Source: an uncultured Candidatus Binatia bacterium (lineage in GTDB: Bacteria; Desulfobacterota; Binatia; UBA9968; JAJDTQ01). From it: DNA of 64,000 nt. Where the stretch lies: the NCBI GenBank assembly GCA_965242525.1, contig OZ251459.1:2656001-2720000 (forward strand), written 5' to 3'. A model generated the notes under the pieces. It saw only the letters and a list, made by a program, of their open reading frames with translations. It did no database searches and was not told the origin of the DNA. Positions 14,317 through 26,431 of the stretch are shown piece by piece. The position numbers and the translations under genes were made by a program. Numbering within the stretch: position 1 is the first letter of the stretch; every line of letters begins with the position of its first letter.

Positions 14317-15024
14317 TCAGGGCTCCACCGCTGGCCACTTTTCCACCACCATGGCCGGGAAGCCTTCCCGTGACAGGCGGGCGGCGTATTCCCTGGCCTC
14401 GGAATGATCGTCGAAGGTCCCGAGCCGGACCCGGTGGTAGCCCGCGTGGGGCTCGATGACCACCGGCCGGTCGTAGCGGCTCTCGAGTCGCGCTTTCAAC
14501 TCACGGGCCTTGTCCGGGTCCGCGAACGCCCCCAACTGCAAGGTGTAGTCGAGCCGGTCGGGGATGGCCGTGAGTTCCCGGCCGCCGGTGTCCAGCACCT
14601 CCACCCGCACCGGCGCCGTTCCCGGCCCGATCATGTCCACCGCCTGGGCCGCGGCATAGGAAAGGTCGATCACCCGCCCCTTGACGAACGGCCCGCGGTC
14701 GTTGACCAGCACGGTCACCGACTTGCCGTTGGCCAGGTTCGTGACCCGGACGCTCGACCCCAGCGGCAGGGTCTGGTGCGCCGCGGTCATCCCGTACTGG
14801 TCATAGACGGCGCCGCTGGTGGTCTTCTTCCCGTGGAAGCCGGGACCGTACCAGGATGCGATCCCCCGTTGCGAAAGCTCCACGGACGGCTCCCCGACGC
14901 CGGGCGAAGGGGCAGGCGCCGGAGGCTCCGGCGCCGAAGGCGCGCAGCCCGAAAGCAGGAAGAGGACGACCGCGGCGCAAGGCAAGGAGCCTGCGCCCCG
15001 CGGCCAGGGACGTGCAGAAACCAT
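14317..15024 (-). CDS. rlpA: Septal ring lytic transglycosylase RlpA (DPBB + SPOR lipoprotein)
   Basis: Lipobox LSGC; [31 protein letters not shown]; SPOR motif LQLGAF. Confidence 0.92.
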
Positions 15025-15170
15025 CGCCCCCTGATTATAGCGCAACGCCGCCCGCATGGAAGCGGTACGCCCGCCGGCGCTTACGGTGTGGGGGGAATTA
15101 TGGTACTTTTCTCACAGGTCCGCGGACGAGAACCGCGGGATCCAGTCCCGTTCGAGGAGAAGGCGGCGTC

Positions 15171-15917
15171 ATGTCCGGACATTCCAAATGGAGCACCATC
15201 AAGCACAAGAAGGCTGCCAAGGACGCCAGGAGAGGCAAGCTGTTCACCAAGTTCATCAAGGAGATCACCGTGGCCGCGCGCATGGGCGGGGGAGACGCGG
15301 CCACCAACCCGCGGCTGCGCACCGCGGTGCAGACGGCCCGTGACAACAGCATGCCCAACGACAACATCGAGCGCGCCATCAAGAAGGGCACTGGCGAGCT
15401 CGAAGGGGTCTCCTACGAAGAGGTCAGCTACGAGGGCTACGGACCCGGGGGGGCCGCCTTCCTGGTGCAGGCATGGACCGACAACCGCAACCGCACGGTG
15501 TCGGACATCCGGCGGCTGTTCTCCAAGCACGGCGGAAGCCTGGGCGAGACCGGCTGCGTGGCGTGGATGTTCGACAGCAAGGGGCTCATCGTGGTGTCCA
15601 GGGACGCGGTGGAGGAAGAGGCGTTGTTGGGGCTGGCCCTGGAGGCCGGGGCGGAGGACGTGACCGAAAGCGACGACGTGTTCGAGGTCCTCACCCGGCC
15701 CGAGGACTTCGCCGCGGTGCGGGAGAGCCTCGAGAACGGGAAGGTCCCCATGCTCTCGGCCGAAGTAACCATGATCCCCAAGAACACCATGAAGCTCGGC
15801 GAGAGGGAAGCCGAGCAGACCCTCAGCCTCACCGAAGACCTCGAGGACCTCGACGATGTCCAGAGCGTTGCGGCGAACTTCGACATCCCGGCCGACCTCC
15901 TCGAGAAGACCGGCTGA
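15171..15917 (+). CDS. yebC: YebC/PmpR family protein
   Basis: [34 protein letters not shown]. Confidence 0.97.
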
Positions 15918-15941
15918 CGCGGACGGGGTCGGAGAAGGAAG

Positions 15942-16499
15942 ATCGTCACGATCCTGGGCATAGACCCCGGAACCGTCAAGACCGGTTGGGGCGTGGTCCG
16001 GTCGGACGGCAGCCGCCTGGAGCACGTGGCCCACGGCACGGTCCGGGCGTCTCCCGGCCAGTCCCAGGACCGGCGCCTCCACCGGATACACACGGAGTTG
16101 GCCGAAGTCATCCGTCGGCACGAGCCCGCGTGCGTCAGCCTGGAGAAGGTCTTCCTCGCGCGCAACGCCCAGAGCGCCCTGAAGCTCGGCCAGGTGCGCG
16201 GGGTGGCGCTGCTGGCCGCGGCCCAGGGCAGCGTCCCCGTGTCCGAGTACAACTCGGTCCAGGTCAAGAAGGCGCTCACCGGGTACGGGCACGCGGGCAA
16301 GGGCCAGATGCAGCAAATGGTCGCCGCCATCCTCCGCCTTGCCGACGAACCCCAGGAGGACGCGGCCGACGCTCTGGCGGCCGCCATATGCCACGGCCAC
16401 CTGAGCGCTTACGGGAGCAGGGTGCTGGCGGCCGCGGGGCGGACGGGGAGGAGCTCCCGGGGGTTGCGCTGGGGGGCGGATGCCCTGTCCCGCCGGTAG
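15942..16499 (+). CDS. ruvC: Holliday junction resolvase RuvC (no canonical start upstream of GIDPG; start uncertain)
   Basis: ILGIDPG, EKVF, KLGQVRG, VKKALTGYG, DAADALAAAICH; lies between yebC and ruvA. Confidence 0.9.
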   Translation: MVTILGIDPGTVKTGWGVVRSDGSRLEHVAHGTVRASPGQSQDRRLHRIHTELAEVIRRHEPACVSLEKVFLARNAQSALKLGQVRGVALLAAAQGSVPVSEYNSVQVKKALTGYGHAGKGQMQQMVAAILRLADEPQEDAADALAAAICHGHLSAYGSRVLAAAGRTGRSSRGLRWGADALSRR

Positions 16500-16589
16500 T
16501 CCGCGGATGCCGGGAGCCTCCGCGGGCCGCAAGGCCCTGGGGGTTTCCGGTGGAACGCCGGGCGTCCCCCGGTCGTCACGGATCCCGTC

Positions 16590-17174
16590 GTGATCGCCAA
16601 GGTTCGCGGAACCCTGGACCACAAGGAGCCGGGCGAGGTGGTCGTGGACGTCGGCGGCGTCGGCTACCAACTGTCCATCGCGCTGAGCGTGTTCTACCGG
16701 CTGCCGGAGGTGGGCGAGCCCGTGACGCTGCTCGCGTACACCCATGTCCGGGAAGACTCCCTCCAGTTGTTCGGCTTCTTCGACCCCGCGGAGAAGCAGG
16801 TCTTCGTGCTCCTGACCGGGGTGTCGGGCATCGGTCCCCGGCTGGCCCTGAACATCCTTTCGGGCATGGCGGCCGACGAGTTGCTGGGGGCCCTCAAGGA
16901 CGGCGACGTGGCCCGGCTGGTGTCCATCCCCGGGGTGGGCAAGCGCCTGGCGGATCGCATGATCGTGGAGTTGCGTGATAGGATAACGACGCTTCCGGAA
17001 GCCGCGCCGGACCCGGCCGCGGACCCGGGCGTCAGGGCCGACGCCCTGTCGGCGCTGTCGAACCTGGGGTATCGCCGCGCCGATGCGGAGGGGGTCGTGC
17101 GGCAGGTGCTGCGCAAGGGAGCGTCCGACCTGGAAACCGTGCTCAAGGAAGCCCTCCGCCTGCTCAGCCGGTAG
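16590..17174 (+). CDS. ruvA: Holliday junction branch migration protein RuvA
   Basis: DVGGVGY, VREDSLQLFGF, VSGIGPRLA, IPGVGK, ALSNLGY. Confidence 0.96.
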   Translation: MIAKVRGTLDHKEPGEVVVDVGGVGYQLSIALSVFYRLPEVGEPVTLLAYTHVREDSLQLFGFFDPAEKQVFVLLTGVSGIGPRLALNILSGMAADELLGALKDGDVARLVSIPGVGKRLADRMIVELRDRITTLPEAAPDPAADPGVRADALSALSNLGYRRADAEGVVRQVLRKGASDLETVLKEALRLLSR

Positions 17175-17207
17175 CGGACCGGCGGGCTGCGCAGCGGACC
17201 TCCGTTC

Positions 17208-18245
17208 ATGGAAAGCAGGATCATCTCTCCCGCGGGCGCCGAAGAGGACGTCGTTTACGACAACAGCCTCCGGCCTCGACGGTTCAGCGAGTACGTCGGA
17301 CAGGACAAGGTCAAGGCGAACCTGGGGGTGGCCATCACCGCGGCCAAACGGCGCGGGGACGTCCTGGACCACCTGCTCTTCCACGGGCCTCCCGGCCTGG
17401 GCAAGACCTCGCTGGCGCACCTCATCTCCAGGGAGATGGAGGTGGACATCCGGCCCACCTCGGGTCCGGTGGTGGAGCGGCCCGGGGACCTCGCCGCGTT
17501 GCTCACCAACCTCGACGCGGGGGACATCCTGTTCATCGACGAGATCCACCGCCTCAACCACGTGGTGGAGGAAGTGCTGTACCCCGCCATGGAGGACTTC
17601 CAGGTGGACGTCATGATCGGCCAGGGACCAGGGGCCAAGTCCATCAAGCTGGAGCTCAAGCGCTTCACCCTGATCGGCGCCACCACCCGTTCGGGGTTGT
17701 TGACCCCGGCCTTGCGCAACCGTTTCGGCGCGGTGTTCCGCCTGGACTTCTACGAGCCCGCGGTGCTGGCCGCGCTGCTCGCCCGGTCCGCGTCTCTGCT
17801 GGGGGTGGACGGCGACGAAGAGGGTTTCCTGGAGATCGCGCGCCGGTCCCGGGGCACCCCGCGCATCGCCAACCGGCTGTTGCGGCGGGTCCGGGACTAC
17901 GCGGAAGTCCATGCCGAGGGAAGGATCACCCGGCCGGTGGCGTGCCATGCCCTGGAGATGCTGGAGGTGGACGAGCAGGGCTGCGACAAGATGGACACCC
18001 TGATCCTGGCCACCATCATCGACAAGTTCGACGGCGGCCCCGTGGGGCTGGACACCCTCGCCGCGGCCATCGGCGAGGAAAGGGGCACCGTAGAGGACGC
18101 GTACGAGCCGTACCTGATCCAGGCGGGCTTCCTGGAACGGCGGCCCCAGGGCCGGGTGGCCACGCCGGTGGCCTACCGGCACCTGGGAAGGTCCCAGTCC
18201 GAGTCGCGCATGGACCGGGAGAAACGGCAGAAGCGGCTGTTGTGA
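17208..18245 (+). CDS. ruvB: Holliday junction DNA helicase RuvB
   Basis: [44 protein letters not shown]. Confidence 0.98.
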
Positions 18246-18320
18246 GCGCGGCGGTCCCTTTGCGCTTTGCCGGCGCAAGCGATAGCATGTCCTTTGGGAG
18301 CAAGCAGTCGGGTCATTCCC

Positions 18321-20552
18321 ATGAGCGCGGTCAAGGCTGACGAAAAGTTGGCGGAGACGCTCCGTTCCGACGAACGGAAGCGGCGCAGGCGCGAAGGGTG
18401 GGTGATTTTCGCCGCCACCCTGGTGATACTGCTGTTCGCCTACTCCGAGGTGTTCCTGCCGGGCCTGCCCGCGGACTACGGCTTCTTCGGCAACGCCGCG
18501 GTCTTCCTGCTGTTCAACCTCAACATCCTCCTGCTGGTGCTGGTGGTCTTCCTCGTGGCCCGGAACCTGCTGAAGCTGGTCCTGGACCGGCGGCGGCGGA
18601 TCCTGGGGTCCCGTATCCAGATCCGGCTCGTGCTGGCCTTCGTCTGCATCGCGCTGGCGCCCACCGTGACGCTGTTCGTGCTGGCCGAGAGCTTCGTGAC
18701 GCGGGCGGTGGACAAGTGGTTCGACTCGCAGATCGTCAACGCCCTCAGGAACTCCCTCGACATCACCGAGACCTACTACGAGAACTCGGCCGGCAACGCC
18801 CTTTTCTTCGCCCGGCAGATCAGCGGGCGCGTCGGCGGCGCGGAGCTACTGGACCCCGGCAAGCTCGACGAGTTGCAGCGCCTCGTCGAGGACAAGCAGA
18901 AGGAGTACGGCCTGGGCACTGTGGAGATCTACCGGCCGGACGGGGCCGCGGTGGTGAAGGCGTTCAACGACCAGGTGCCCACCGGGGTTACGGTGAGCCC
19001 CCAGGCGGACTTCCTCAAACGCGCGCTCCGGGGCCTGGAGGCCACCCGCGTCCAGCCCTTGGGCGAGGGCGACGTGCTGCGCGGCGCGGTGCCGGTGTAC
19101 GGCGAGGGCCGACGGATCATCGGGGTCGTGGCGGTGGACTACTTCGTGCCCCGGAGCATCAGCAGGAAGGCGCAGCAGGTATCCCGCTCGTACGAGGAGC
19201 ACAAGGATCTGGCGGTGCTCAAGGAACCGGTGAAGCGGACCTACATCACGACCCTGCTGCTCATCACCCTGACGATGATCTTTGCGGCCACCTGGTTCGG
19301 CCTCGCGCTGGCCAAGGGCATCACCGTGCCCATCCGCCAGCTCGCGGAAGGCACCCACGAAGTGGCCCAGGGCAACCTGGATCATCGTATCGAGGCCGGC
19401 GGAGACGACGAGTTCGGCGCGCTGGTGGCCTCCTTCAACCGCATGACCGAGGACCTCGAGCATACCCACTCCGAGTTGGACCGGCGGCGGCGCTACATGG
19501 AGACGCTGCTGGCCAACATCACCGCGGGGGTGGTCTCCGTGGACTGGTCCGGCCGCGTGAACATCGTCAACAAGGCGGCCGAGATGACGCTGGGGATCCG
19601 GGCGCCGGAGGTGCTCCACCGGCCCTACGACGAGGTGTTCCAGACCCCCAGGCTGCAACCCCTGCTCGACGTGGTCCGGGACGTGAGGGGGGGCGCCGGC
19701 GTGGAGCGCGACGTCCGCATCACGGGCAGGGACGGGAGCCTGACCCTCATGGTCGTCGCGGCGAGCCTCCAGGACGACGAAGGCAACACCCTCGGGGTCA
19801 TGGCGTTCATGGAGGACGTGACCGAGATCCAGAAGGTCCAACGCGTGGAGGCTTGGCGCGAGGCGGCTCGCCGCATCGCCCACGAGATCCGGAACCCGCT
19901 GACGCCCATCCAGCTTTCCGCCCAGCGGCTGCGCAAGCGCTACGGGAACCTGCCGGACGGGGACGGGGCGGTCCTCGACAAGTGCACTTCCACCATCATC
20001 CGGCAGGTGGAGGAGTTGAAGACCCTGGTGAACGAGTTCTCCAACTTCGCGCGGCTGCCCACGGCCCGGCTCGTCCCGGACGACCTCAACGCGGTGGTCC
20101 GGGAAGCGCTGGTGCTGTTCCGGGAAGGGCGCCGGGAGGTGGAGTTCGACTTTTCCGAGGACGCGGCGATTCCGCCCGTGGAGCTGGACCGCGACCAGAT
20201 CAAGCGCACCCTGTTCAACCTGCTGGACAACGCGGTGGCCTCCCTCGACGGCGCCGGACGGGTCGAGGTCGCCACGCGGTTCGACGAGGCCTTCGACATG
20301 GTGCGGCTGGAGGTGGCGGACGAGGGCGGGGGCATCGCCCGGGAAGACCGGGGCCGGATCTTCGAACCCTACTACTCGAGCAAGGAGGACGGCACCGGAC
20401 TCGGCCTGTCCATCGTCGGGACCATCGTGGCCGACCACCGAGGATACATCCGCGTGCGCGAGAACCAGCCCCGGGGCACGCGCTTCATCATCGAGCTTCC
20501 CGCGGCAACGCCCGGGGCCGCCGTGGAGGCGAGGGCCAGCAAGGCGTCGTGA
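18321..20552 (+). CDS. ntrY: NtrY-like membrane sensor histidine kinase (TM-periplasmic-HAMP-PAS-HisKA-HATPase)
   Basis: Several N-terminal TM helices, WFD, HAMP (DEFGALVASFNRM), AWREAARRIAHEIRNPLTPIQLSAQRL, GTGLGL. Confidence 0.85.
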   Translation: MSAVKADEKLAETLRSDERKRRRREGWVIFAATLVILLFAYSEVFLPGLPADYGFFGNAAVFLLFNLNILLLVLVVFLVARNLLKLVLDRRRRILGSRIQIRLVLAFVCIALAPTVTLFVLAESFVTRAVDKWFDSQIVNALRNSLDITETYYENSAGNALFFARQISGRVGGAELLDPGKLDELQRLVEDKQKEYGLGTVEIYRPDGAAVVKAFNDQVPTGVTVSPQADFLKRALRGLEATRVQPLGEGDVLRGAVPVYGEGRRIIGVVAVDYFVPRSISRKAQQVSRSYEEHKDLAVLKEPVKRTYITTLLLITLTMIFAATWFGLALAKGITVPIRQLAEGTHEVAQGNLDHRIEAGGDDEFGALVASFNRMTEDLEHTHSELDRRRRYMETLLANITAGVVSVDWSGRVNIVNKAAEMTLGIRAPEVLHRPYDEVFQTPRLQPLLDVVRDVRGGAGVERDVRITGRDGSLTLMVVAASLQDDEGNTLGVMAFMEDVTEIQKVQRVEAWREAARRIAHEIRNPLTPIQLSAQRLRKRYGNLPDGDGAVLDKCTSTIIRQVEELKTLVNEFSNFARLPTARLVPDDLNAVVREALVLFREGRREVEFDFSEDAAIPPVELDRDQIKRTLFNLLDNAVASLDGAGRVEVATRFDEAFDMVRLEVADEGGGIAREDRGRIFEPYYSSKEDGTGLGLSIVGTIVADHRGYIRVRENQPRGTRFIIELPAATPGAAVEARASKAS

Positions 20553-20587
20553 CCGGCGCCGGACGATAAGAACCACGGGGGGACGCC

Positions 20588-21931
20588 ATGCAGTCGGAGC
20601 AGAAAACGGTGCTGGTGGTGGACGACGAGGACGGCATCCGCGAGACCGTGCGCGAGATCCTGGCCGACGAGGGTTACCGCGTGGTCGCCGCTCCCGATGC
20701 GAGGGAGGTCCCGGACTTGGTGGCCGCAGAGGCCCCGGACGTGATCCTCCTGGACGTGTGGATGCCGGAGCTGGACGGCATCACGCTCCTCAGGCGCATC
20801 CGGCGGGAGCGTCCGGAGGCCCGGGTCATCATGATTTCCGGTCACGGGAGCATCCACACCGCGGTGGCCGCAACCCGGCTGGGAGCTTTCGACTTCATCG
20901 AGAAACCGTTTTCCCTGGACGGGTTGCTGGCCGCGGTCGAGCGGGCTTGCGGCGACCCCAGGCGGCGCGAGGACCCCGCGGCGGTGGAGGACCTGCAGGC
21001 TCGTCGGCTCCGGGCGGCGGGGCCGTCCGGCCCGGGGGAGGGCGGCCGCGGCGCGCCCCAGAAGACCATCGGGAAGAGCGTGGTGGCGTGCGGCCTGGGG
21101 CTGCATTCCGGCGTCAGCACGGGCGTCATCCTGCATCCGTTGCCGGAGGACAGCGGCATCCAGTTCGGCGGCATCTCCACGGACGCCACCGTGCCGGCGC
21201 ACCTGGACTGCGTGCGCTCCACCGAGTTCGCCACCTCGCTGCAACGGGGCGGGGTGGTGGTAGGCACCGTGGAGCACCTGCTGGCCGCCCTCCACGCCTA
21301 TGGCATCACCAACCTGCTCATCAAGATGTACGGCGAGATCCCCATCATGGACGGTTCCGCCATCGAGTTCTGCCGGTTGATCGAGGAGGCCGGGGTGGAG
21401 GAGCAGCGCGGGGAATGCCCGGAGATCGTCATCGACCGGACCTTTCGCGTGCGCGGGGACGGCCCGGAAGAGATCGTCGTCGAACCCGCGGACCGCTTCA
21501 CCGTCCACTACGAGTTGCAGTACCCGAGCCCGGTGGGGACCCAGGAACACACCTACGTCCACTACGGGGCGGACTCGTTCCGCGACGAGATCGCCCCCGC
21601 CCGGACCTTCGGTTTCCTGCGGGACTTCGGGAAGCTCGAGGGCATGGGCCTGATCAAGGGGGGCCGGCTGGGCAACTGCATCCTCGTGGACGACGAGAAG
21701 GTGGTCAACACTTCGCTCCGGTTCGAGGACGAGTTCGCGCGTCACAAGATCCTGGACATCGTGGGGGACTTCTCGCTCATCGGCCGCCCCGTGCGCGGCC
21801 GCGTGACCGCCCGGATGACCGGCCACGCGGACAACATCGCGCTCTTGCGGCAGGTGGCCGAGGCCTTCGGTTCCCCGGAACCCCGTTCCGCTTCGGCGGC
21901 TCGTCCGTCCGCGGATACGCTGTCCCCTTGA
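20588..21931 (+). CDS. lpxC: NtrX-type receiver domain fused to UDP-3-O-acyl-GlcNAc deacetylase LpxC
   Basis: REC: VVDDE, LLDVWMP, ISGHG, FIEKPF. LpxC: QKTI, GLGLHSG, TVEHLLAAL, EIPIMDGSA, EIAPARTFGF, RHKILD, GH. Confidence 0.93.
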   Translation: MQSEQKTVLVVDDEDGIRETVREILADEGYRVVAAPDAREVPDLVAAEAPDVILLDVWMPELDGITLLRRIRRERPEARVIMISGHGSIHTAVAATRLGAFDFIEKPFSLDGLLAAVERACGDPRRREDPAAVEDLQARRLRAAGPSGPGEGGRGAPQKTIGKSVVACGLGLHSGVSTGVILHPLPEDSGIQFGGISTDATVPAHLDCVRSTEFATSLQRGGVVVGTVEHLLAALHAYGITNLLIKMYGEIPIMDGSAIEFCRLIEEAGVEEQRGECPEIVIDRTFRVRGDGPEEIVVEPADRFTVHYELQYPSPVGTQEHTYVHYGADSFRDEIAPARTFGFLRDFGKLEGMGLIKGGRLGNCILVDDEKVVNTSLRFEDEFARHKILDIVGDFSLIGRPVRGRVTARMTGHADNIALLRQVAEAFGSPEPRSASAARPSADTLSP

Positions 21932-21948
21932 CGGGGTCGGCTCGTCCC

Positions 21949-22347
21949 CTATTCGAACCCGAGCAGGCGCGCGTAGGTTTGCGGCAGGGGGATGAGCTTG
22001 CGGTCGCGGCCGAGGCAGGCGTGTTTGGTCCAGCCCGTTGCGATGGCGGCGCGGTCCGCTTCCCGACCGATCCGGTAGTGGAACTTCAGCGCCACGCGGT
22101 TCAGCGATTCGACCGTGGTCTCGATCCGCAGCAGGTCGTCGTAGCGGGCCGGCCTGCGGTAACGGCATTGCGCCTCGGTGACCGGGAAGAAGACGCCGTC
22201 TTCCTCGGCTCGCCGGTAGGGTATGCCGGCTTCGCGCATGAGCTCGGTCCTGCCGACCTCGAACCAGCGAAGGTAGTGGGCGTAGTAGGCCACTCCCATC
22301 TGGTCCGTGTCGCCGTAGATGACGCGGTAGGCGGTGACGTTCTTCAC
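21949..22347 (-). CDS. YbgC/FadM family acyl-CoA thioesterase
   Basis: RVIYGDTDQMGVAYYAHYLRWFEVGRTE, PARYDD; start codon uncertain (GTG 22347). Confidence 0.88.
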   Translation of the reverse strand: MKNVTAYRVIYGDTDQMGVAYYAHYLRWFEVGRTELMREAGIPYRRAEEDGVFFPVTEAQCRYRRPARYDDLLRIETTVESLNRVALKFHYRIGREADRAAIATGWTKHACLGRDRKLIPLPQTYARLLGFE

Positions 22348-22384
22348 GTGCGGAGGAGGCTCTCCCCGCGGGTCCCGGCGGCGT

Positions 22385-23308
22385 TCAGTGGTCCGCTTTC
22401 CCGCCCCGCGGGCCGGGTTGGTTGAAGTCCCAGCGGTCACGGCTGGCCACCCGGACTTCCATCGAGCCGTCGCCCCGGAGGACATGGAAGTTGACCGGGT
22501 CTCCGGCTTGCTTCTTCCAGAGCTCCCGGTAGAGCTGGGGCCGGGTCTGCACCTCCCGGTCCTCGACCGTGAGGATGATGTCCCCCTGCCTGAGGCCGGC
22601 CTCTTCCGCGGGTCCCGAGGGCGTGACCCCGGTCACCACCACGTGGCCTTCCACCCCCTGGGGATGGAAGCCGAGCCAGGGTCGCGGCGGCCGGCTGCGG
22701 ACCCGCCCGAACCGTTTCAGTTCGTCCGCGTCCCGGAGGTAGTACTCCACCGGGATGGCCAGTGTGAACTTGGCGATCTCGTTCAGGTTCAGGGACACCA
22801 CGCCCAGGAGACGGCCCCGGGAGTCGGCCAGCGTGCCGCCGCCGAAGCCCGGGTTGAACGCGCTCAGCCGGATGGAGCGTTCGAGCAGGTACTCCCACTG
22901 GGCGTCGTAGCCTTCCAGGGAGGTGACGCAGCCATCGCTGACCCGTCGAGCCTGCTGGCCCCCGCTGGCGACCATGAACGCGGGTTGGCCGACGTTGACG
23001 GACTCCGCCGGCCGCAGGAACGGCAGGCCCCCGGCGTCGATCCTGACCAGGGCGAGGCCGGTGTCGAAGTCCTGCGCGGCCAGCCGGCCCGGGCGCCGTT
23101 TCCCGTCCGAGAGCGTCACGGTGATGGACTCGGCCCCGTTGACCACGTAGTTGACGGTCAGGATGACGCCGGTGGGATCGACGATGGTCCCGGAGCCCAT
23201 CCTCTCGGAGCCCAGGTTCCGCGCGGAAGGATGGCTCGACGGCACCCTCACGTCGAGGTCCACCGTGGCCGGCAGCACCGAATGTACCAGACCCAACCGT
23301 GCGTTCAC
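22385..23308 (-). CDS. S1C (HtrA-like) trypsin-fold + PDZ protein, probably catalytically inactive
   Basis: GSGTIVD, LTVNYVV, FNPGFGGG, RPWLG, GPAEEAGLRQGDII; GTG 23308 with GGGAGG RBS. Confidence 0.85.
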   Translation of the reverse strand: MNARLGLVHSVLPATVDLDVRVPSSHPSARNLGSERMGSGTIVDPTGVILTVNYVVNGAESITVTLSDGKRRPGRLAAQDFDTGLALVRIDAGGLPFLRPAESVNVGQPAFMVASGGQQARRVSDGCVTSLEGYDAQWEYLLERSIRLSAFNPGFGGGTLADSRGRLLGVVSLNLNEIAKFTLAIPVEYYLRDADELKRFGRVRSRPPRPWLGFHPQGVEGHVVVTGVTPSGPAEEAGLRQGDIILTVEDREVQTRPQLYRELWKKQAGDPVNFHVLRGDGSMEVRVASRDRWDFNQPGPRGGKADH

Positions 23309-23321
23309 GCGCAACCTCCCA

Positions 23322-23499
23322 CTTTCCCGCAGGGAGAGGGAATTCAAGCCGGAATCGCCCGGAGTTCCACGAGGAAACCCTGAACGATGGAGCCGTGGAC
23401 GGGGGATTCCCTCACGCGGCCCTCCCGTCCCCGTTCGTCCTGAGCGTAGCGAAGCGGAGTCGAAGGACGCGCCCTTCCTCCGGGATCTTTCAAGGTTCC
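23322..23499. repeat. MITE/REP copy with partial second end
   Basis: GGAAACCCTGAACGA at 23373, REP core 23430-23470, end GGTTCC at 23499. Confidence 0.8.
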
Positions 23500-23677
23500 C
23501 TTAACAGAATCGGCGTGGGTCCACAAGGTTCCGCACTCCGGGGTCCGGGTCCGCGGGGCTTCGGGCCGTTTGGCGGGGCCGGCGGCAAGTAGCCGGAACA
23601 ACGGGGCTTTCGTCGTGCCCGGCGTTTGACAAAGAGGCCGGCCGGCGGGTATGAAGACCGTTTCGACGGGGGTTGCC

Positions 23678-24196
23678 TTGAGGATTGCATTGGCCCGGAT
23701 CGACGCCGTACCCAGGGAAAGCCGTTTCTCCGAGACCCTGGACTTGGCCCGGGATGACGTTTCGGCAGGGGTGCGCTTTCCCTCGCCCATACAGGTGAAC
23801 GTGAGCTGCTACCGGTCGGGCCGGGAGATCTTCTTCCGCGGCGGACTCAGGGGCGAAGCGGAGGGGGATTGCAGCCGTTGCCTGGAGAGCTTCCCGTTGG
23901 TCATCGAAAAAAGTTTCGACTTCGTGTTGACCCCGGACCCCCTTCCGACTAATAGAAACATGGAGCTCACCGCGGACGAGATGGGTTTGAGCTTCTACTC
24001 CGGCGAGGACATCGACCTTTCGCCCTATGTCCGCGAGCAGGCGTTGCTTGCCTTGCCCCTGCGGCCGCTGTGCAGCGAAAGCTGCCGCGGACTTTGCCCC
24101 GACTGCGGCGCCGAGTTGAACCGGGATCCCTGCGGGTGCACGCCGCCCGGGGACCCCCGTATGGCGGTTTTTCGCAACCTCCGGTTGGACCGGTAG
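23678..24196 (+). CDS. yceD: YceD/DUF177 family protein
   Basis: CSRCL, IDLSPYVREQALLALP, LCSESCRGLCPDCG, DPR; upstream of rpmF; TTG start chosen because ATG 23651 overlaps a TTGACA..TATGAA promoter-like element. Confidence 0.9.
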   Translation: MRIALARIDAVPRESRFSETLDLARDDVSAGVRFPSPIQVNVSCYRSGREIFFRGGLRGEAEGDCSRCLESFPLVIEKSFDFVLTPDPLPTNRNMELTADEMGLSFYSGEDIDLSPYVREQALLALPLRPLCSESCRGLCPDCGAELNRDPCGCTPPGDPRMAVFRNLRLDR

Positions 24197-24243
24197 CGCC
24201 GGCGGGCGCCGGAAACGACGAACAGGCAGGACGGATACCAGAC

Positions 24244-24426
24244 ATGCCCGTACCCAAGAGACGAACCTCCCCCAGCAAGCGAAACAAGCGCCGGTCCCAT
24301 GACGCCATTGCCGCGCCGCAGTGGATCACGTGCCCTCGTTGCGAGGAAGCGGTCCTGAGGCACAGGGTCTGCGCCAAGTGCGGCCACTACAGGTCCCGTT
24401 CCGTGACTCCCGGCGAAGAAACCTGA
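24244..24426 (+). CDS. rpmF: 50S ribosomal protein L32
   Basis: MPVPKRRTS..RRSHD, CPRC, HRVCAKCGHY. Confidence 0.97.
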   Translation: MPVPKRRTSPSKRNKRRSHDAIAAPQWITCPRCEEAVLRHRVCAKCGHYRSRSVTPGEET

Positions 24427-24445
24427 AGCCGCCTGTTGCCTGGTG

Positions 24446-25474
24446 ATGCGGCGGGTTATCGTTGACGGGATGGGCGGTGACCACGGCCCGGGTGTCGTCG
24501 TAGCGGGGGCGCTGCAAGCTGCGAAGGAATACGGGGTGGAGGTCACCCTGGTGAGCGAATCGGGCGCGGTGGAATCCGAGTTGTCGCGCCATTCGTTCGA
24601 CCCGTCGTCCGTGCGCGTCCTGTCCGCGGCCGCCTCCATCGGCATGCACGACTCGCCGAGCCGTGCGCTGAAGCGCAAGGACTCCTCCATGCGGGTCGCC
24701 TTCGACCGCCTGAAGGCGGGTGAAGGCGACGCGGTGGTGAGCGCCGGGAACTCCGGGGCGATGATGGCCATCGGCATGTTCGTGCTGGGACGGTTGCCCG
24801 GGGTGGACCGGCCCGCCATCCTGACGGTCAGCCCCTCCCTTTCCGGCGGCACGGTCCTCCTGGACGGGGGGGCCAATACCGACTGCAAGCCGCGGCAGTT
24901 GGCGCAGTTCGCACGGATGGGCGCCATCTACGCGGAGAAGATCCTCGGAGTCCCGCGGCCCCGGGTGGGCATCCTGAGCAACGGCGAGGAGGACGAGAAG
25001 GGCAACGACCTCACGCGGGAGGCGGTCCGCGAGTTGCGGGCCACGGAGTTGAACTTCGCGGGCCACGTGGAGGGCCGGGACATTGCCAACGGCCGAGTTG
25101 ACGTGGTGGTCTGCGACGGCTTCACCGGCAACGTGGCGTTGAAGACCATGGAGGGACTCGGACAGTTCGTCTCCTCGGTCCTGAAGGAGGCGTTCCGCAG
25201 CAGCCTGCTCAGCCGGCTGGGGTTCCTGTTGTGCCGGCGGGCGGTGCGGCGCGCCTACGACCGCCTCGATTATGCGCACTACGGCGGCGCGCCCCTGATC
25301 GGCCTGGACGGCGTCGCCATCGTGGCCCACGGCGGCTCGTCCGCCAAGGCCATCAAGAACGCCGTGCGGGTGGCGGCCGAAGCCGTCTCCCAGGACATCA
25401 ACGGCTACATCGTGAACGCGTTGGAGCGTGCGCCGGAGCCTCGCGAGCGGACGGATGGCTCCGGTCACGCCTGA
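24446..25474 (+). CDS. plsX: Phosphate acyltransferase PlsX
   Basis: VDGMGGDHGP, KDSSM, SAGNSGA, DRPAI, LLDGGAN, VCDGFTGN, YGGAPLIG. Confidence 0.97.
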   Translation: MRRVIVDGMGGDHGPGVVVAGALQAAKEYGVEVTLVSESGAVESELSRHSFDPSSVRVLSAAASIGMHDSPSRALKRKDSSMRVAFDRLKAGEGDAVVSAGNSGAMMAIGMFVLGRLPGVDRPAILTVSPSLSGGTVLLDGGANTDCKPRQLAQFARMGAIYAEKILGVPRPRVGILSNGEEDEKGNDLTREAVRELRATELNFAGHVEGRDIANGRVDVVVCDGFTGNVALKTMEGLGQFVSSVLKEAFRSSLLSRLGFLLCRRAVRRAYDRLDYAHYGGAPLIGLDGVAIVAHGGSSAKAIKNAVRVAAEAVSQDINGYIVNALERAPEPRERTDGSGHA

Positions 25475-25483
25475 GTGGGGCTG

Positions 25484-26431
25484 ATGGCGGACCCGGGACG
25501 TATCGCGTTCGTCTTTCCCGGGCAGGGATCCCAGTACGTGGGCATGGGGAAGGCCCTGTGCGAGGGGTTCCCGGAGGCGAGGGCGGTCTTCGACGAGGCG
25601 GAGGACGCCCTGCGGATGGACCTCCGCAAGGTGTGCTTCGACGGTCCCGAGGCCGACCTGAACCGCACCGCTTGCACCCAACCCGCGATCCTCGCCGTGT
25701 CCGTGGCCGCGCTCCGGGTGCTCGAAGGACGTTGCCGGGCCAGGCCCTCGTGGGCGGCGGGACACAGCCTCGGCGAATACAGCGCCTTGGTGTGCGCGGG
25801 TGCGCTCCGGTTGGCGGACGCGGCGGCGGTGGTCCGGGAGCGGGGGCGGCTGATGCAGGAAGCCGTGCCCGAGGGCGCAGGGGGCATGGCGGCGGTCCTC
25901 GGTTTGGAAGCGTCGGTGGTGCGGGAGGTTTGCGAGCAGGCGGGGGGCGGGGAGGTGGTGGCTCCCGCCAACTTCAACGGCGGCGGGCAGGTGGTGGTTT
26001 CCGGCGCTCGCGAAGCGGTGCGGCGGGCGGCGCAACTGGCCCGGGACCGGGGCGCGCGGAAGGTGGTGGACCTCCCGGTGAGCGCTCCGTTCCACTGCGC
26101 GCTCATGGAGCCCGCGTCGGAGGGGTTGCGGGAGGTGCTGGAGGGAGTCGAGGTGCGGCCCTTCCGGGTGGGCGTCGTCACCAACGTGGAGGCGGCTTCG
26201 AACTCCGACCCGGAGCGTGTCAAACCCCTTCTGGTGGAGCAGGTGGCGGCCCCGGTCCGATGGGAGGAGTCGGTGGAGACCTTGGCCGGGCTGGGCTGCG
26301 AGTGCGCCGTGGAGCTGGGTCCGGGGAGGGTGTTGTCCGGGCTCATCCGGCGCATCGACCGGAGGATGAAGACCCTCCACATGGAACGGCCCGAGGACCT
26401 GGAAGGGGTGCTCGCGGAGTTGGGGGGCTGA
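25484..26431 (+). CDS. fabD: Malonyl-CoA:ACP transacylase
   Basis: FPGQGSQ, TQPAI, GHSLGEY, VSAPFHC. Confidence 0.97.
   Translation: MADPGRIAFVFPGQGSQYVGMGKALCEGFPEARAVFDEAEDALRMDLRKVCFDGPEADLNRTACTQPAILAVSVAALRVLEGRCRARPSWAAGHSLGEYSALVCAGALRLADAAAVVRERGRLMQEAVPEGAGGMAAVLGLEASVVREVCEQAGGGEVVAPANFNGGGQVVVSGAREAVRRAAQLARDRGARKVVDLPVSAPFHCALMEPASEGLREVLEGVEVRPFRVGVVTNVEAASNSDPERVKPLLVEQVAAPVRWEESVETLAGLGCECAVELGPGRVLSGLIRRIDRRMKTLHMERPEDLEGVLAELGG

Follow-up and report, generated by a model that had tools for sequence, protein, structure and literature searches.

LpxC is the enzyme that commits cells to lipid A synthesis. Most of what is understood of its control comes from the enterobacteria, in which proteolysis through FtsH, LapB and YejM exerts it. 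Here we describe an LpxC that carries an N-terminal receiver (REC) domain of the response-regulator type. Its gene directly follows that of a sensor histidine kinase in a 64,000-nucleotide stretch of DNA (the window) from an uncultured Candidatus Binatia bacterium (assembly GCA_965242525.1, contig OZ251459.1, positions 2,656,001 to 2,720,000). The gene pair had been singled out in an initial annotation of the window made from its letters alone, which proposed that the kinase phosphorylates the enzyme itself, and the present computational analysis follows up that proposal. It confirms the observation and supports the proposal, since all of the computational checks that had been suggested gave results in its favour.

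Two-component control of lpxC transcription has been published for Desulfovibrio, in which a kinase and an NtrC-type receiver protein (DVU2931/DVU2934 in D. vulgaris, Dde_3000/Dde_3003 in D. alaskensis G20) are, in the parts of the reports that describe them, dedicated to LpxC as their sole target. The sigma54-type regulator DVU2934, whose kinase is DVU2931, has a single target and binds upstream of lpxC alone, and the orthologous operon of Syntrophobacter fumaroxidans is noted to be directly preceded by lpxC (PMC3333781). Similarly, lpxC of D. alaskensis G20 is controlled by Dde_3000 as kinase and Dde_3003 as sigma54 regulator, is apparently their sole target, and has a sigma54 site at its transcription start site (PMC4045070). 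In Leptospira, a sigma54 promoter is predicted upstream of lpxC and the NtrC-like protein EbpB is LIC_11549 (in the portion of PMC12655853 that covers them). The cluster type lpxC-kinase-sigma54 regulator was also found here, in 15 loci. The Desulfovibrio regulator, however, binds DNA and activates transcription, whereas the protein from the window has lost the AAA+ and helix-turn-helix (HTH) domains and has its receiver linked covalently to the enzyme.

Enzymatic outputs are likewise established among response regulators. Like the protein described here, CheB has a receiver of the phosphorylatable type at its N-terminus and a hydrolase at its C-terminus, with a flexible linker between them, and the CheB hydrolase is held in check by its receiver as long as the latter is not phosphorylated. 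CheB is the likely working analogy, and occlusion of LpxC by its receiver is proposed by that analogy. The two differ in that the output here is not a signalling enzyme but one that catalyses a core biosynthetic step in an essential pathway, and in that REC-LpxC appears to have arisen from a transcription factor that captured its own target. LpxC control in E. coli is different again, since adaptor-mediated proteolysis by FtsH/LapB/YejM involves no covalent sensor domain. Another natural LpxC fusion protein, LpxC-FabZ (NF009667), is a C-terminal fusion to an enzyme that neighbours LpxC in the pathway, not an N-terminal fusion to a signalling domain. NtrY and NtrX resemble the present pair in kinase architecture and in being the best NCBIfam match of the receiver, respectively, and loss of NtrYX in R. 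sphaeroides raises lpxC transcripts 8.8-fold, indirectly (as given in the relevant part of PMC7240162). The initial annotation knew of no characterised case of such control, and our full-text literature searches, whose scope did not extend to supplementary tables or to the 2006 response-regulator census, returned no description of such a fusion or of an origin by regulator capture. The covalent joining of a receiver to LpxC, and its origin by fusion of a regulator to its target enzyme, are thus new as far as we could find. Databases name these proteins plainly LpxC, so that the regulatory domain has been overlooked.

A receiver domain and a complete LpxC in one protein

Pfam assigns residues 8-118 of the fusion protein to Response_reg (PF00072; 111.4 bits against a cut-off of 30.2, profile positions 1-111 of 111) and residues 158-424 to LpxC (PF03331; 275.6 bits, profile positions 1-267 of 268), and finds no AAA+ or HTH domain in it. 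The match to the NCBIfam equivalog for lpxC (TIGR00325) reaches 242 bits, above its cut-off of 187.25. Intact receiver motifs and a complete LpxC in one open reading frame (ORF) had been noted in the initial annotation, and all the motifs that it named are present and conserved. Among 92 aligned short fusions, those that have a linker between the two domains, D12, D13, D56 (in LLDVWMP), S84 (in ISGHG) and K106-P107 of the receiver are invariant in 92, as are E229-H230 (TVEH), H386-K387 and D390 (HKILD) of LpxC, while H413 of the GH motif is conserved in at least 90%. The LpxC motifs match those of solved LpxC chains residue for residue (E = 4e-53), and the nearest solved structures of the receiver (4d6x, 5m7n and 1zit) were deposited as receivers of Fis-family or NtrC-family regulators.

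In an AlphaFold2 (AF2) model, the receiver has the (beta-alpha)5 fold, with five strands and five helices at residues 7-121 and a predicted local distance difference test score (pLDDT) of ∼84-94. Over the whole protein the mean pLDDT is 84.6 and the predicted template modelling score (pTM) is 0.80, both domains being modelled with confidence and the linker as disordered. The linker (∼residues 119-157) had been described as rich in Arg, Gly and Pro, which is borne out; it is also rich in Ala, its pLDDT falls below 50 at residues 125-152, and its length and sequence vary across the family. Judged by profile, site residues and fold, the N-terminal domain is a receiver that is predicted to be phosphorylatable and, judged by score, full-length domain and zinc/catalytic residues, the C-terminal part is an LpxC with predicted deacetylase activity.

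Three other assignments of the fusion protein were considered and rejected. NtrX (NF051870) is the best NCBIfam match of the receiver, but the score is 127.6 bits against a cut-off of 600, over model positions 3-129 alone, so that the protein, which has neither AAA+ nor HTH, falls far outside that family. It is not a sigma54 enhancer-binding (NtrC-type) regulator, having no AAA+ domain; it appears to be descended from that family and to be no longer a member. Nor is it a bifunctional LpxC/FabZ (NF009667), to which it scores 209.8 bits against 465 with the LpxC part alone matched.

Twelve LpxC positions are conserved in at least 90% of the fused clade defined below and are rare in unfused LpxC, and these positions are candidates for a regulatory surface. 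At K246 the charge is reversed, the residue being Glu in 13 of 15 unfused sequences.

The fusion is genuine and is the only LpxC of the organism

The genome that contains the window (4.23 Mb, 98.96% complete) has one match to LpxC (PF03331), namely the fusion gene, which serves as the organism's only LpxC. A check for a second lpxC or a full ntrX had been suggested at the outset; neither exists in this genome in the sense that there is one LpxC match and no NtrX above cut-off. Its two full-length NtrC-type regulators each adjoin a kinase of their own and both keep the GAFTGA motif.

A fusion of this kind could be the product of an assembly error or a frameshift, or LpxC could be translated separately from a start inside the ORF. 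The one feature that points to the latter is a GTG at linker residue 133 of this genome with a GAGGA-like stretch 5' of it. The column of this GTG is not conserved in the family, however, the linker contains no conserved Met, and the LpxC domain opens at its natural N-terminal Q-K/R-T-L motif without a start codon of its own. As to assembly, single contigs from two other studies span positions 18200-22000, and hence cross the junction, with 41 and 56 substitutions and 0 gaps, which effectively refutes an artefact; across four independent runs a single indel was seen, in a third run, where 2 nt are inserted behind position 20575 inside the intergenic spacer. The architecture is, moreover, common to at least 120 independent clusters, and we regard the chance of either explanation as negligible. 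Close strain variants of the operon (41-56 substitutions per 3.8 kb, 0 gaps) occur in runs X4, X7 and X10 from other studies, of which X4 and X10 are labelled sponge metagenome.

REC-LpxC is widespread

The search for the architecture across genomes that the initial annotation had called for showed it to be widespread. Both domains are present in 120 of the 120 homologue clusters listed, from 96% down to 61% identity. The fusion protein was also searched against 301 genomes of the window's phylum. It is matched end to end in 39 of them, the window's own included, and in 37 further genomes open frames of 450-966 amino acids encode this type of LpxC at 48-60% identity. Most of the remaining genomes have an ordinary LpxC of ∼300 amino acids (35-42% identity), and 23 of the 301 have no LpxC match at E ≤ 1e-35. 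The receiver stands ahead of LpxC in all 18 cases fetched (17 of the 37 with longer frames and one of the 39); nine of these are short forms with a longer linker and nine are long forms with the architecture REC-AAA+-LpxC, in frames of 694-837 amino acids. If the 20 unexamined cases resemble the 17 examined, ∼76 of the 301 genomes (25%) have a receiver-bearing LpxC, and in the fused genomes this is nearly always the single LpxC-containing match at E ≤ 1e-35. Beyond this sample, fused loci were found in records whose titles name Syntrophobacter, Syntrophobacteraceae, Syntrophobacterales, Binatia/Binataceae, Thermodesulfovibrionia, Nitrospinaceae and Bdellovibrionota. REC-LpxC is neither an artefact nor a one-off and is present in at least four other phyla.

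A representative library of 1.84 billion proteins was also searched and the best 65 clusters, some of which are fragments, were classified by architecture. They include 32 REC-LpxC clusters, plus 2 fragments split as REC-LpxC-LpxC, 9 REC-AAA+-HTH-LpxC, 6 REC-AAA+-LpxC and 2 REC-HTH-LpxC. One protein among the representative matches (P0197, 1121 amino acids) has six tandem receiver domains.

The sensor kinase and its link to the fusion

The HAMP, PAS, HisKA and HATPase_c domains of the kinase all score above the Pfam cut-offs, and the HisKA domain carries an H-E-x-x-N motif, as read from the translation. Kyte-Doolittle hydropathy (in the frame from 18267) predicts 3-4 transmembrane (TM) helices at the N-terminus, an extracytoplasmic domain and a final TM segment. 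Over the sensor region there are weak single-Cache and dCache_3 matches, with sCache_3_2 below cut-off. The best NCBIfam matches, the LIC_11548 family and AtoS, are also below cut-off. The designation 'NtrY-like' in the initial annotation is accurate for the architecture (multi-TM, extracytoplasmic, HAMP-PAS-HisKA-HATPase_c) but not for the NtrY_N domain (PF19312), which remains sub-threshold at 19.8 versus 23.2 bits (22.7 bits in the orthologue at locus L023).

The kinase and fusion ORFs are co-directional and 35 nt apart, and this short spacer, with a Shine-Dalgarno-like (SD-like) G-run before the ATG at 20588, suggests an operon junction. The arrangement recurs, with an orthologue of the kinase directly upstream and on the same strand in 10 of 15 fused public loci (sensor region 312-740 bits). 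In genomes with an orphan fusion, exactly one kinase orthologue is encoded elsewhere (5 of 5 tested), and no receiver gene lies in the ∼0.8-1.5 kb flanks of these five relocated kinases. No other kinase in the window's genome shares the sensor region. When this region (residues 1-360) was searched against the 301 genomes and cross-tabulated by hand with the LpxC matches, it was found in 275, mostly in single copy, and in 75 of the 76 fused genomes; the one miss (G211) is 88% complete and in ∼1190 contigs. The kinase is a near-universal core sensor of the phylum that is retained with the fusion. The adjacent kinase is probably the cognate kinase/phosphatase of REC-LpxC, and presumably its phosphodonor.

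Six genomes of family f47/genus g75 (G079, G146, G177, G207, G237 and G265; 99-100% complete) have neither an LpxC match (E ≤ 1e-35) nor a kinase-sensor match (E ≤ 1e-12), in 6 of 6 cases. This may reflect the joint loss of lipopolysaccharide (LPS) synthesis and its sensor; the six genomes are one lineage and count as one event.

The receiver stems from a sigma54-dependent regulator of lpxC

In related bacteria, a conserved cluster encodes LpxC, a kinase and a sigma54 regulator as separate proteins, and both the receiver of the fusion and its kinase are members of the families found there. In the 15 unfused loci, lpxC is followed by a kinase orthologue and then by a regulator of ∼460 amino acids. 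Six of these regulators were scanned, and all six have REC, Sigma54_activat and AAA_lid domains, with HTH_8 (Fis-type) in five. In at least 19 genomes of the phylum sample, hand comparison shows the kinase to be immediately preceded by an lpxC in the same orientation. A strong -24/-12 element lies 58-127 nt upstream of the LpxC domain in 7 of the 15 unfused lpxC genes (L021, L023, L024, L026, L035, L036 and L052, which come from diverse metagenome-assembled genomes including a record titled Limnocylindria), compared with a chance expectation of ∼0.24 among 15 (background of 0.016 sites per 450 nt). These elements resemble the D. alaskensis G20 site as published in the part of PMC4045070 concerned with it. 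No such element was found in any of the 11 fused operons with a linked kinase or in any of the 5 orphan fusions. LIC_11548, from whose family the best NCBIfam match of the kinase comes, would adjoin LIC_11549 going by locus-tag numbering only.

The receiver of the window is 42-52% identical in pairwise comparisons to the receivers of lpxC-linked sigma54 regulators, versus 37-38% to those of its own genome's NtrC-type regulators. In a REC tree, the fused receivers group (SH-aLRT 96) with receivers of lpxC-linked sigma54 regulators and of other delta, Nitrospira and Acidobacteria regulators, and apart from 24 gamma/beta-proteobacterial receivers. By these comparisons the receiver is a descendant of a sigma54-dependent NtrC-type regulator of lpxC and not of NtrX proper; the earlier description of it as NtrX-type stands for its best NCBIfam match but not for its descent.

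One genome (G034) contains a very divergent REC-LpxC (L101 = G034:C11:38500-47000; end branch of 1.62 in the LpxC tree) and, on a second contig (G034:C33:18811-20965), an ordinary lpxC directly upstream of a kinase orthologue, and is thus a natural case of coexistence of the ancestral cluster and the fusion.

A probable single fusion followed by decay of the DNA-binding and ATPase parts

An LpxC tree was built with 34 fused proteins (24 short and 10 long) and 15 unfused proteins, the latter biased towards kinase-linked lpxC. The LpxC domains of all 34 fused proteins form one clade with support of 100/100 and a branch length of 0.62. The REC tree (118 columns) needs 5 changes, while its strongly supported branches force only 1-2. 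This tree cannot settle the monophyly of the fused receivers, and the case for a single origin rests on the LpxC tree.

The long forms carry a degenerate AAA+ domain and an HTH remnant where the short forms have a linker. In all 10 of them the AAA+ domain has kept Walker A and lost the GAFTGA loop, the DE of Walker B and the R-finger motif. Six of the 10 also have an alignable HTH remnant, and LpxC starts some 10-15 residues after it. GAFTGA was found in 0 of the 20 AAA+-bearing representatives among the 65. HTH_8 is above the Pfam cut-off in P0142, while P0145 has the structure REC-HTH remnant-LpxC, and the surviving intermediates comprise REC-AAA+-HTH-LpxC, REC-AAA+-LpxC and REC-HTH-LpxC. 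In contrast to these modules, the phospho-site persists. Among 27 long or REC-HTH forms, 26 have retained its residues D-D-D-S/T-K, the exception being P0161 (E-N-S-S-Q). Among 62 diverse short forms, 61 have retained the acceptor Asp, the exception being P0158 (D to N), in which the LpxC residues are intact. Of 12 residues checked (5 in REC and 7 in LpxC), all are kept in 58 of the 62 diverse forms and the 7 of LpxC in 62 of 62. P0158 and P0161 are natural pseudo-receiver variants of the fusion.

We read these data as the outcome of a single in-frame fusion of a complete NtrC-type regulator (REC-AAA+-HTH) to the enzyme encoded by its target gene. As far as can be read from the sequences, the fused protein then lost its sigma54-contact and ATPase motifs and its HTH by decay or deletion but retained the site of phosphorylation. 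In our reading, the AAA+/HTH part was deleted several times, transcription activation having become dispensable, and the linker of the protein from the window is probably what remains of the deleted modules. The proposed order of events, the long form first and then repeated reduction, relies on the irreversibility of module loss and is not read off the LpxC tree, in which the long forms are nested among the short forms and are not basal. Since the whole regulator was fused to its target enzyme, transcriptional control would have been turned into direct phospho-control.

The conservation of the phospho-site bears on whether the receiver does anything at all. It could be a relic or a merely structural element that was fixed neutrally, LpxC being constitutive and the kinase either signalling elsewhere or using REC-LpxC as a phosphate sink. 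The two representatives without a phospho-site, the many fusions that are not adjacent to the kinase, and the presence of the kinase in most genomes regardless of fusion are all as expected of a relic. A relic would not, however, be expected to keep a phospho-site that is invariant in the 92 short fusions and nearly so in the diverse short, long and REC-HTH forms of at least 5 phyla. The neighbouring AAA+ and HTH decayed in every case while the site stayed, which is a signature of selection on phosphorylation, and no further receiver gene lies next to the relocated kinases. We therefore consider a relic highly improbable.

Proposed control of LpxC by the kinase

We propose that the fusion protein is a response regulator with LpxC for its output domain. 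The kinase, a membrane protein with an extracytoplasmic Cache-like sensor, HAMP and PAS domains, would phosphorylate and dephosphorylate Asp56 of the N-terminal receiver, and the phosphorylation state of the receiver would set LpxC activity. Because the only LpxC carries a receiver inherited from the transcription factor of lpxC, the kinase probably switches the enzyme directly, and from the sequence evidence we put the probability that the adjacent bifunctional kinase controls LpxC directly through phosphorylation at about 0.7. Phosphorylation would most plausibly alter catalysis rather than stability alone. As to how, a CheB-like logic is our tentative suggestion, at somewhat less than even odds: by analogy, the unphosphorylated receiver would pack on LpxC and restrain it, and phosphorylation would relieve the restraint. 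Relief of inhibition is favoured because it would preserve the logic of the ancestral system, whose regulator, when phosphorylated, switches on the transcription of lpxC.

The AF2 scores are relevant here. The pTM is 0.80 for the protein from the window and 0.75 for a 44%-identical homologue from Bdellovibrionota. LpxC makes up ∼61-62% of each chain and by our own arithmetic could alone yield a pTM of ∼0.60-0.63 at most, so that the receiver appears to be placed relative to LpxC with some confidence. This is only a hint that the receiver is held in a defined position against LpxC. A prediction of the complex between REC (1-124) and LpxC (156-430) gave a score of 0.00 in both runs, in which the controls were also not folded, and bears on binding in neither direction.

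The receiver might instead set the abundance of LpxC, phosphorylation exposing or hiding a degron or recruiting a protease so that the signal determines the half-life of the enzyme, in a functional counterpart to the FtsH/LapB system of E. coli. There is precedent for this in the established proteolytic control of enterobacterial LpxC (cited in PMC3333781 and in the PMC6339880 abstract) and in receivers that govern proteolysis such as RssB, which is among the NCBIfam matches of the receiver; the long, disordered, basic linker and a variable C-terminal tail could also be sites of protease entry. On the other hand, no degron or adaptor was identified, the tail is missing in many family members, and the high pTM, in hinting at a fixed packing of REC on LpxC, fits allostery or occlusion better than proteolysis. 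The LapB zinc-ribbon family (PF18073) was tried as a marker of LapB/FtsH control and rejected as uninformative, since it matches the window's own genome but also 10 of 14 control genomes, including those of Gram-positives. Control of abundance is unlikely on balance.

Somewhat less likely again is that the receiver acts through assembly or localisation, with phosphorylation-driven REC dimerisation, or docking to the membrane kinase, concentrating LpxC at the membrane near its lipid substrate and no direct inhibition within the molecule being involved. NtrC-family receivers signal by dimer rearrangement, and the nearest solved relatives of the fused receiver are of the NtrC and Fis families. 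The long forms retain a Walker-A-bearing AAA+ scaffold that could still oligomerise, and a long, flexible and basic linker would suit such a role. Against this, the LpxC enzymes known to us are monomers, and the repeated loss of the AAA+ scaffold indicates that it is not required.

Several observations weigh against direct phospho-control as proposed above. P0158 and P0161 lack the phospho-site and yet retain LpxC, so that the enzyme can exist without phosphorylation. The fusion is unlinked from the kinase in 5 of the 15 public fused loci and in most of the loci L087-L104. Co-occurrence with the kinase, which the initial annotation suggested as a test, holds in that all but one of the fused genomes have it and 10 of 15 loci have it adjacent, but 200 of the 225 non-fused genomes also carry it; for a kinase that is near-universal in the phylum, co-occurrence is consistent with the proposal and not specific to it. 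The pTM argument for packing of REC on LpxC is indirect, being drawn from overall scores alone, and remains a hint. The presumed orthology of the unfused regulators with DVU2934 and Dde_3003 rests on common architecture, on a gene context like the Syntrophobacter arrangement of PMC3333781 and on similar sigma54 sites. Phosphotransfer and its effect on activity are deduced for every member of the family. Lastly, lpxC of D. alaskensis G20 goes up in the kinase mutant (in the part of PMC4045070 on this mutant), and so the sign of the ancestral signalling is not simple. That result is a warning that, in the laboratory, the phosphatase activity of the kinase may predominate.

Layout of the locus

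The kinase and fusion genes and their parts are listed in Table 1 together with the genes that follow. Upstream (window 14317-18245) lie an RlpA-like protein with DPBB and SPOR domains on the minus strand and then YebC, RuvC, RuvA and RuvB on the plus strand. The end of RuvB is 75 nt 5' of the ATG of the kinase, and co-transcription with ruvCAB is possible. Lipid-metabolism genes flank the operon (window 21949-26431).

Table 1. Positions in the window of the kinase and REC-LpxC genes, their parts and the downstream genes
Feature	Position	Strand	Remarks
Sensor histidine kinase gene	18321..20552	+	ATG; 743 aa; NtrY-like architecture; alternative in-frame TTG at 18267
Kinase sensor module	18396..19316	+	TM-like segments, extracytoplasmic domain and final TM; from hydropathy and weak Cache matches
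N-terminal TM-like segments	∼18396-18473, 18480-18590, 18612-18701	+	Kyte-Doolittle
Extracytoplasmic domain	∼18702-19238	+	∼180 aa; Kyte-Doolittle
Final TM segment	∼19239-19316	+	Kyte-Doolittle
Kinase cytoplasmic part	19308..20507	+	HAMP 19308-19460, PAS 19497-19820, HisKA 19854-20057, HATPase_c 20187-20507
Intergenic spacer	20553..20587	+	35 nt; SD-like G-run 5-6 nt 5' of ATG 20588
REC-LpxC fusion gene	20588..21931	+	single uninterrupted ORF, 447 aa plus stop
REC domain, residues 8-118	20609..20941	+	Pfam; Asp56 codon 20753-20755
Linker, residues 119-157	20942..21058	+	Arg/Gly/Pro/Ala-rich, predicted disordered
LpxC deacetylase domain, residues 158-424	21059..21859	+	Pfam PF03331, TIGR00325
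LpxC catalytic/zinc-ligand codons	E229/H230 21272-21277; H386 21743-21745; D390 21755-21757; H413 21824-21826
K246 codon	21323-21325		charge reversal
4HBT thioesterase	21949-22485	-	converges on 3' end of fusion gene
Trypsin-PDZ protease	22385-23347	-
YceD	23651-24196
PlsX	24443-25474
FabD	25475-26431

Implications

The family offers a genetically explicit answer to the question of how most Gram-negative phyla beyond the enterobacteria set LpxC activity. A membrane kinase wired to the enzyme through an attached receiver, as proposed here, can be tested with simple biochemistry and gives a handle on the envelope signal. The family also provides an unusually complete evolutionary series with living intermediates, in which a transcription factor was fused to its target enzyme and then shed its DNA-binding and sigma54-activating parts, and is a clear example of regulatory short-circuiting. 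In a broader reading, which we hold to be about evenly balanced, a complete sigma54-dependent regulator became part of the product of the one gene that it controlled, the transcriptional circuit was converted into a hard-wired post-translational switch, and the ligand of the kinase would report the state of the outer membrane. If this is true, the kinase family, present in 275 of the 301 genomes, would be a general and so far unrecognised sensor of LPS homeostasis.

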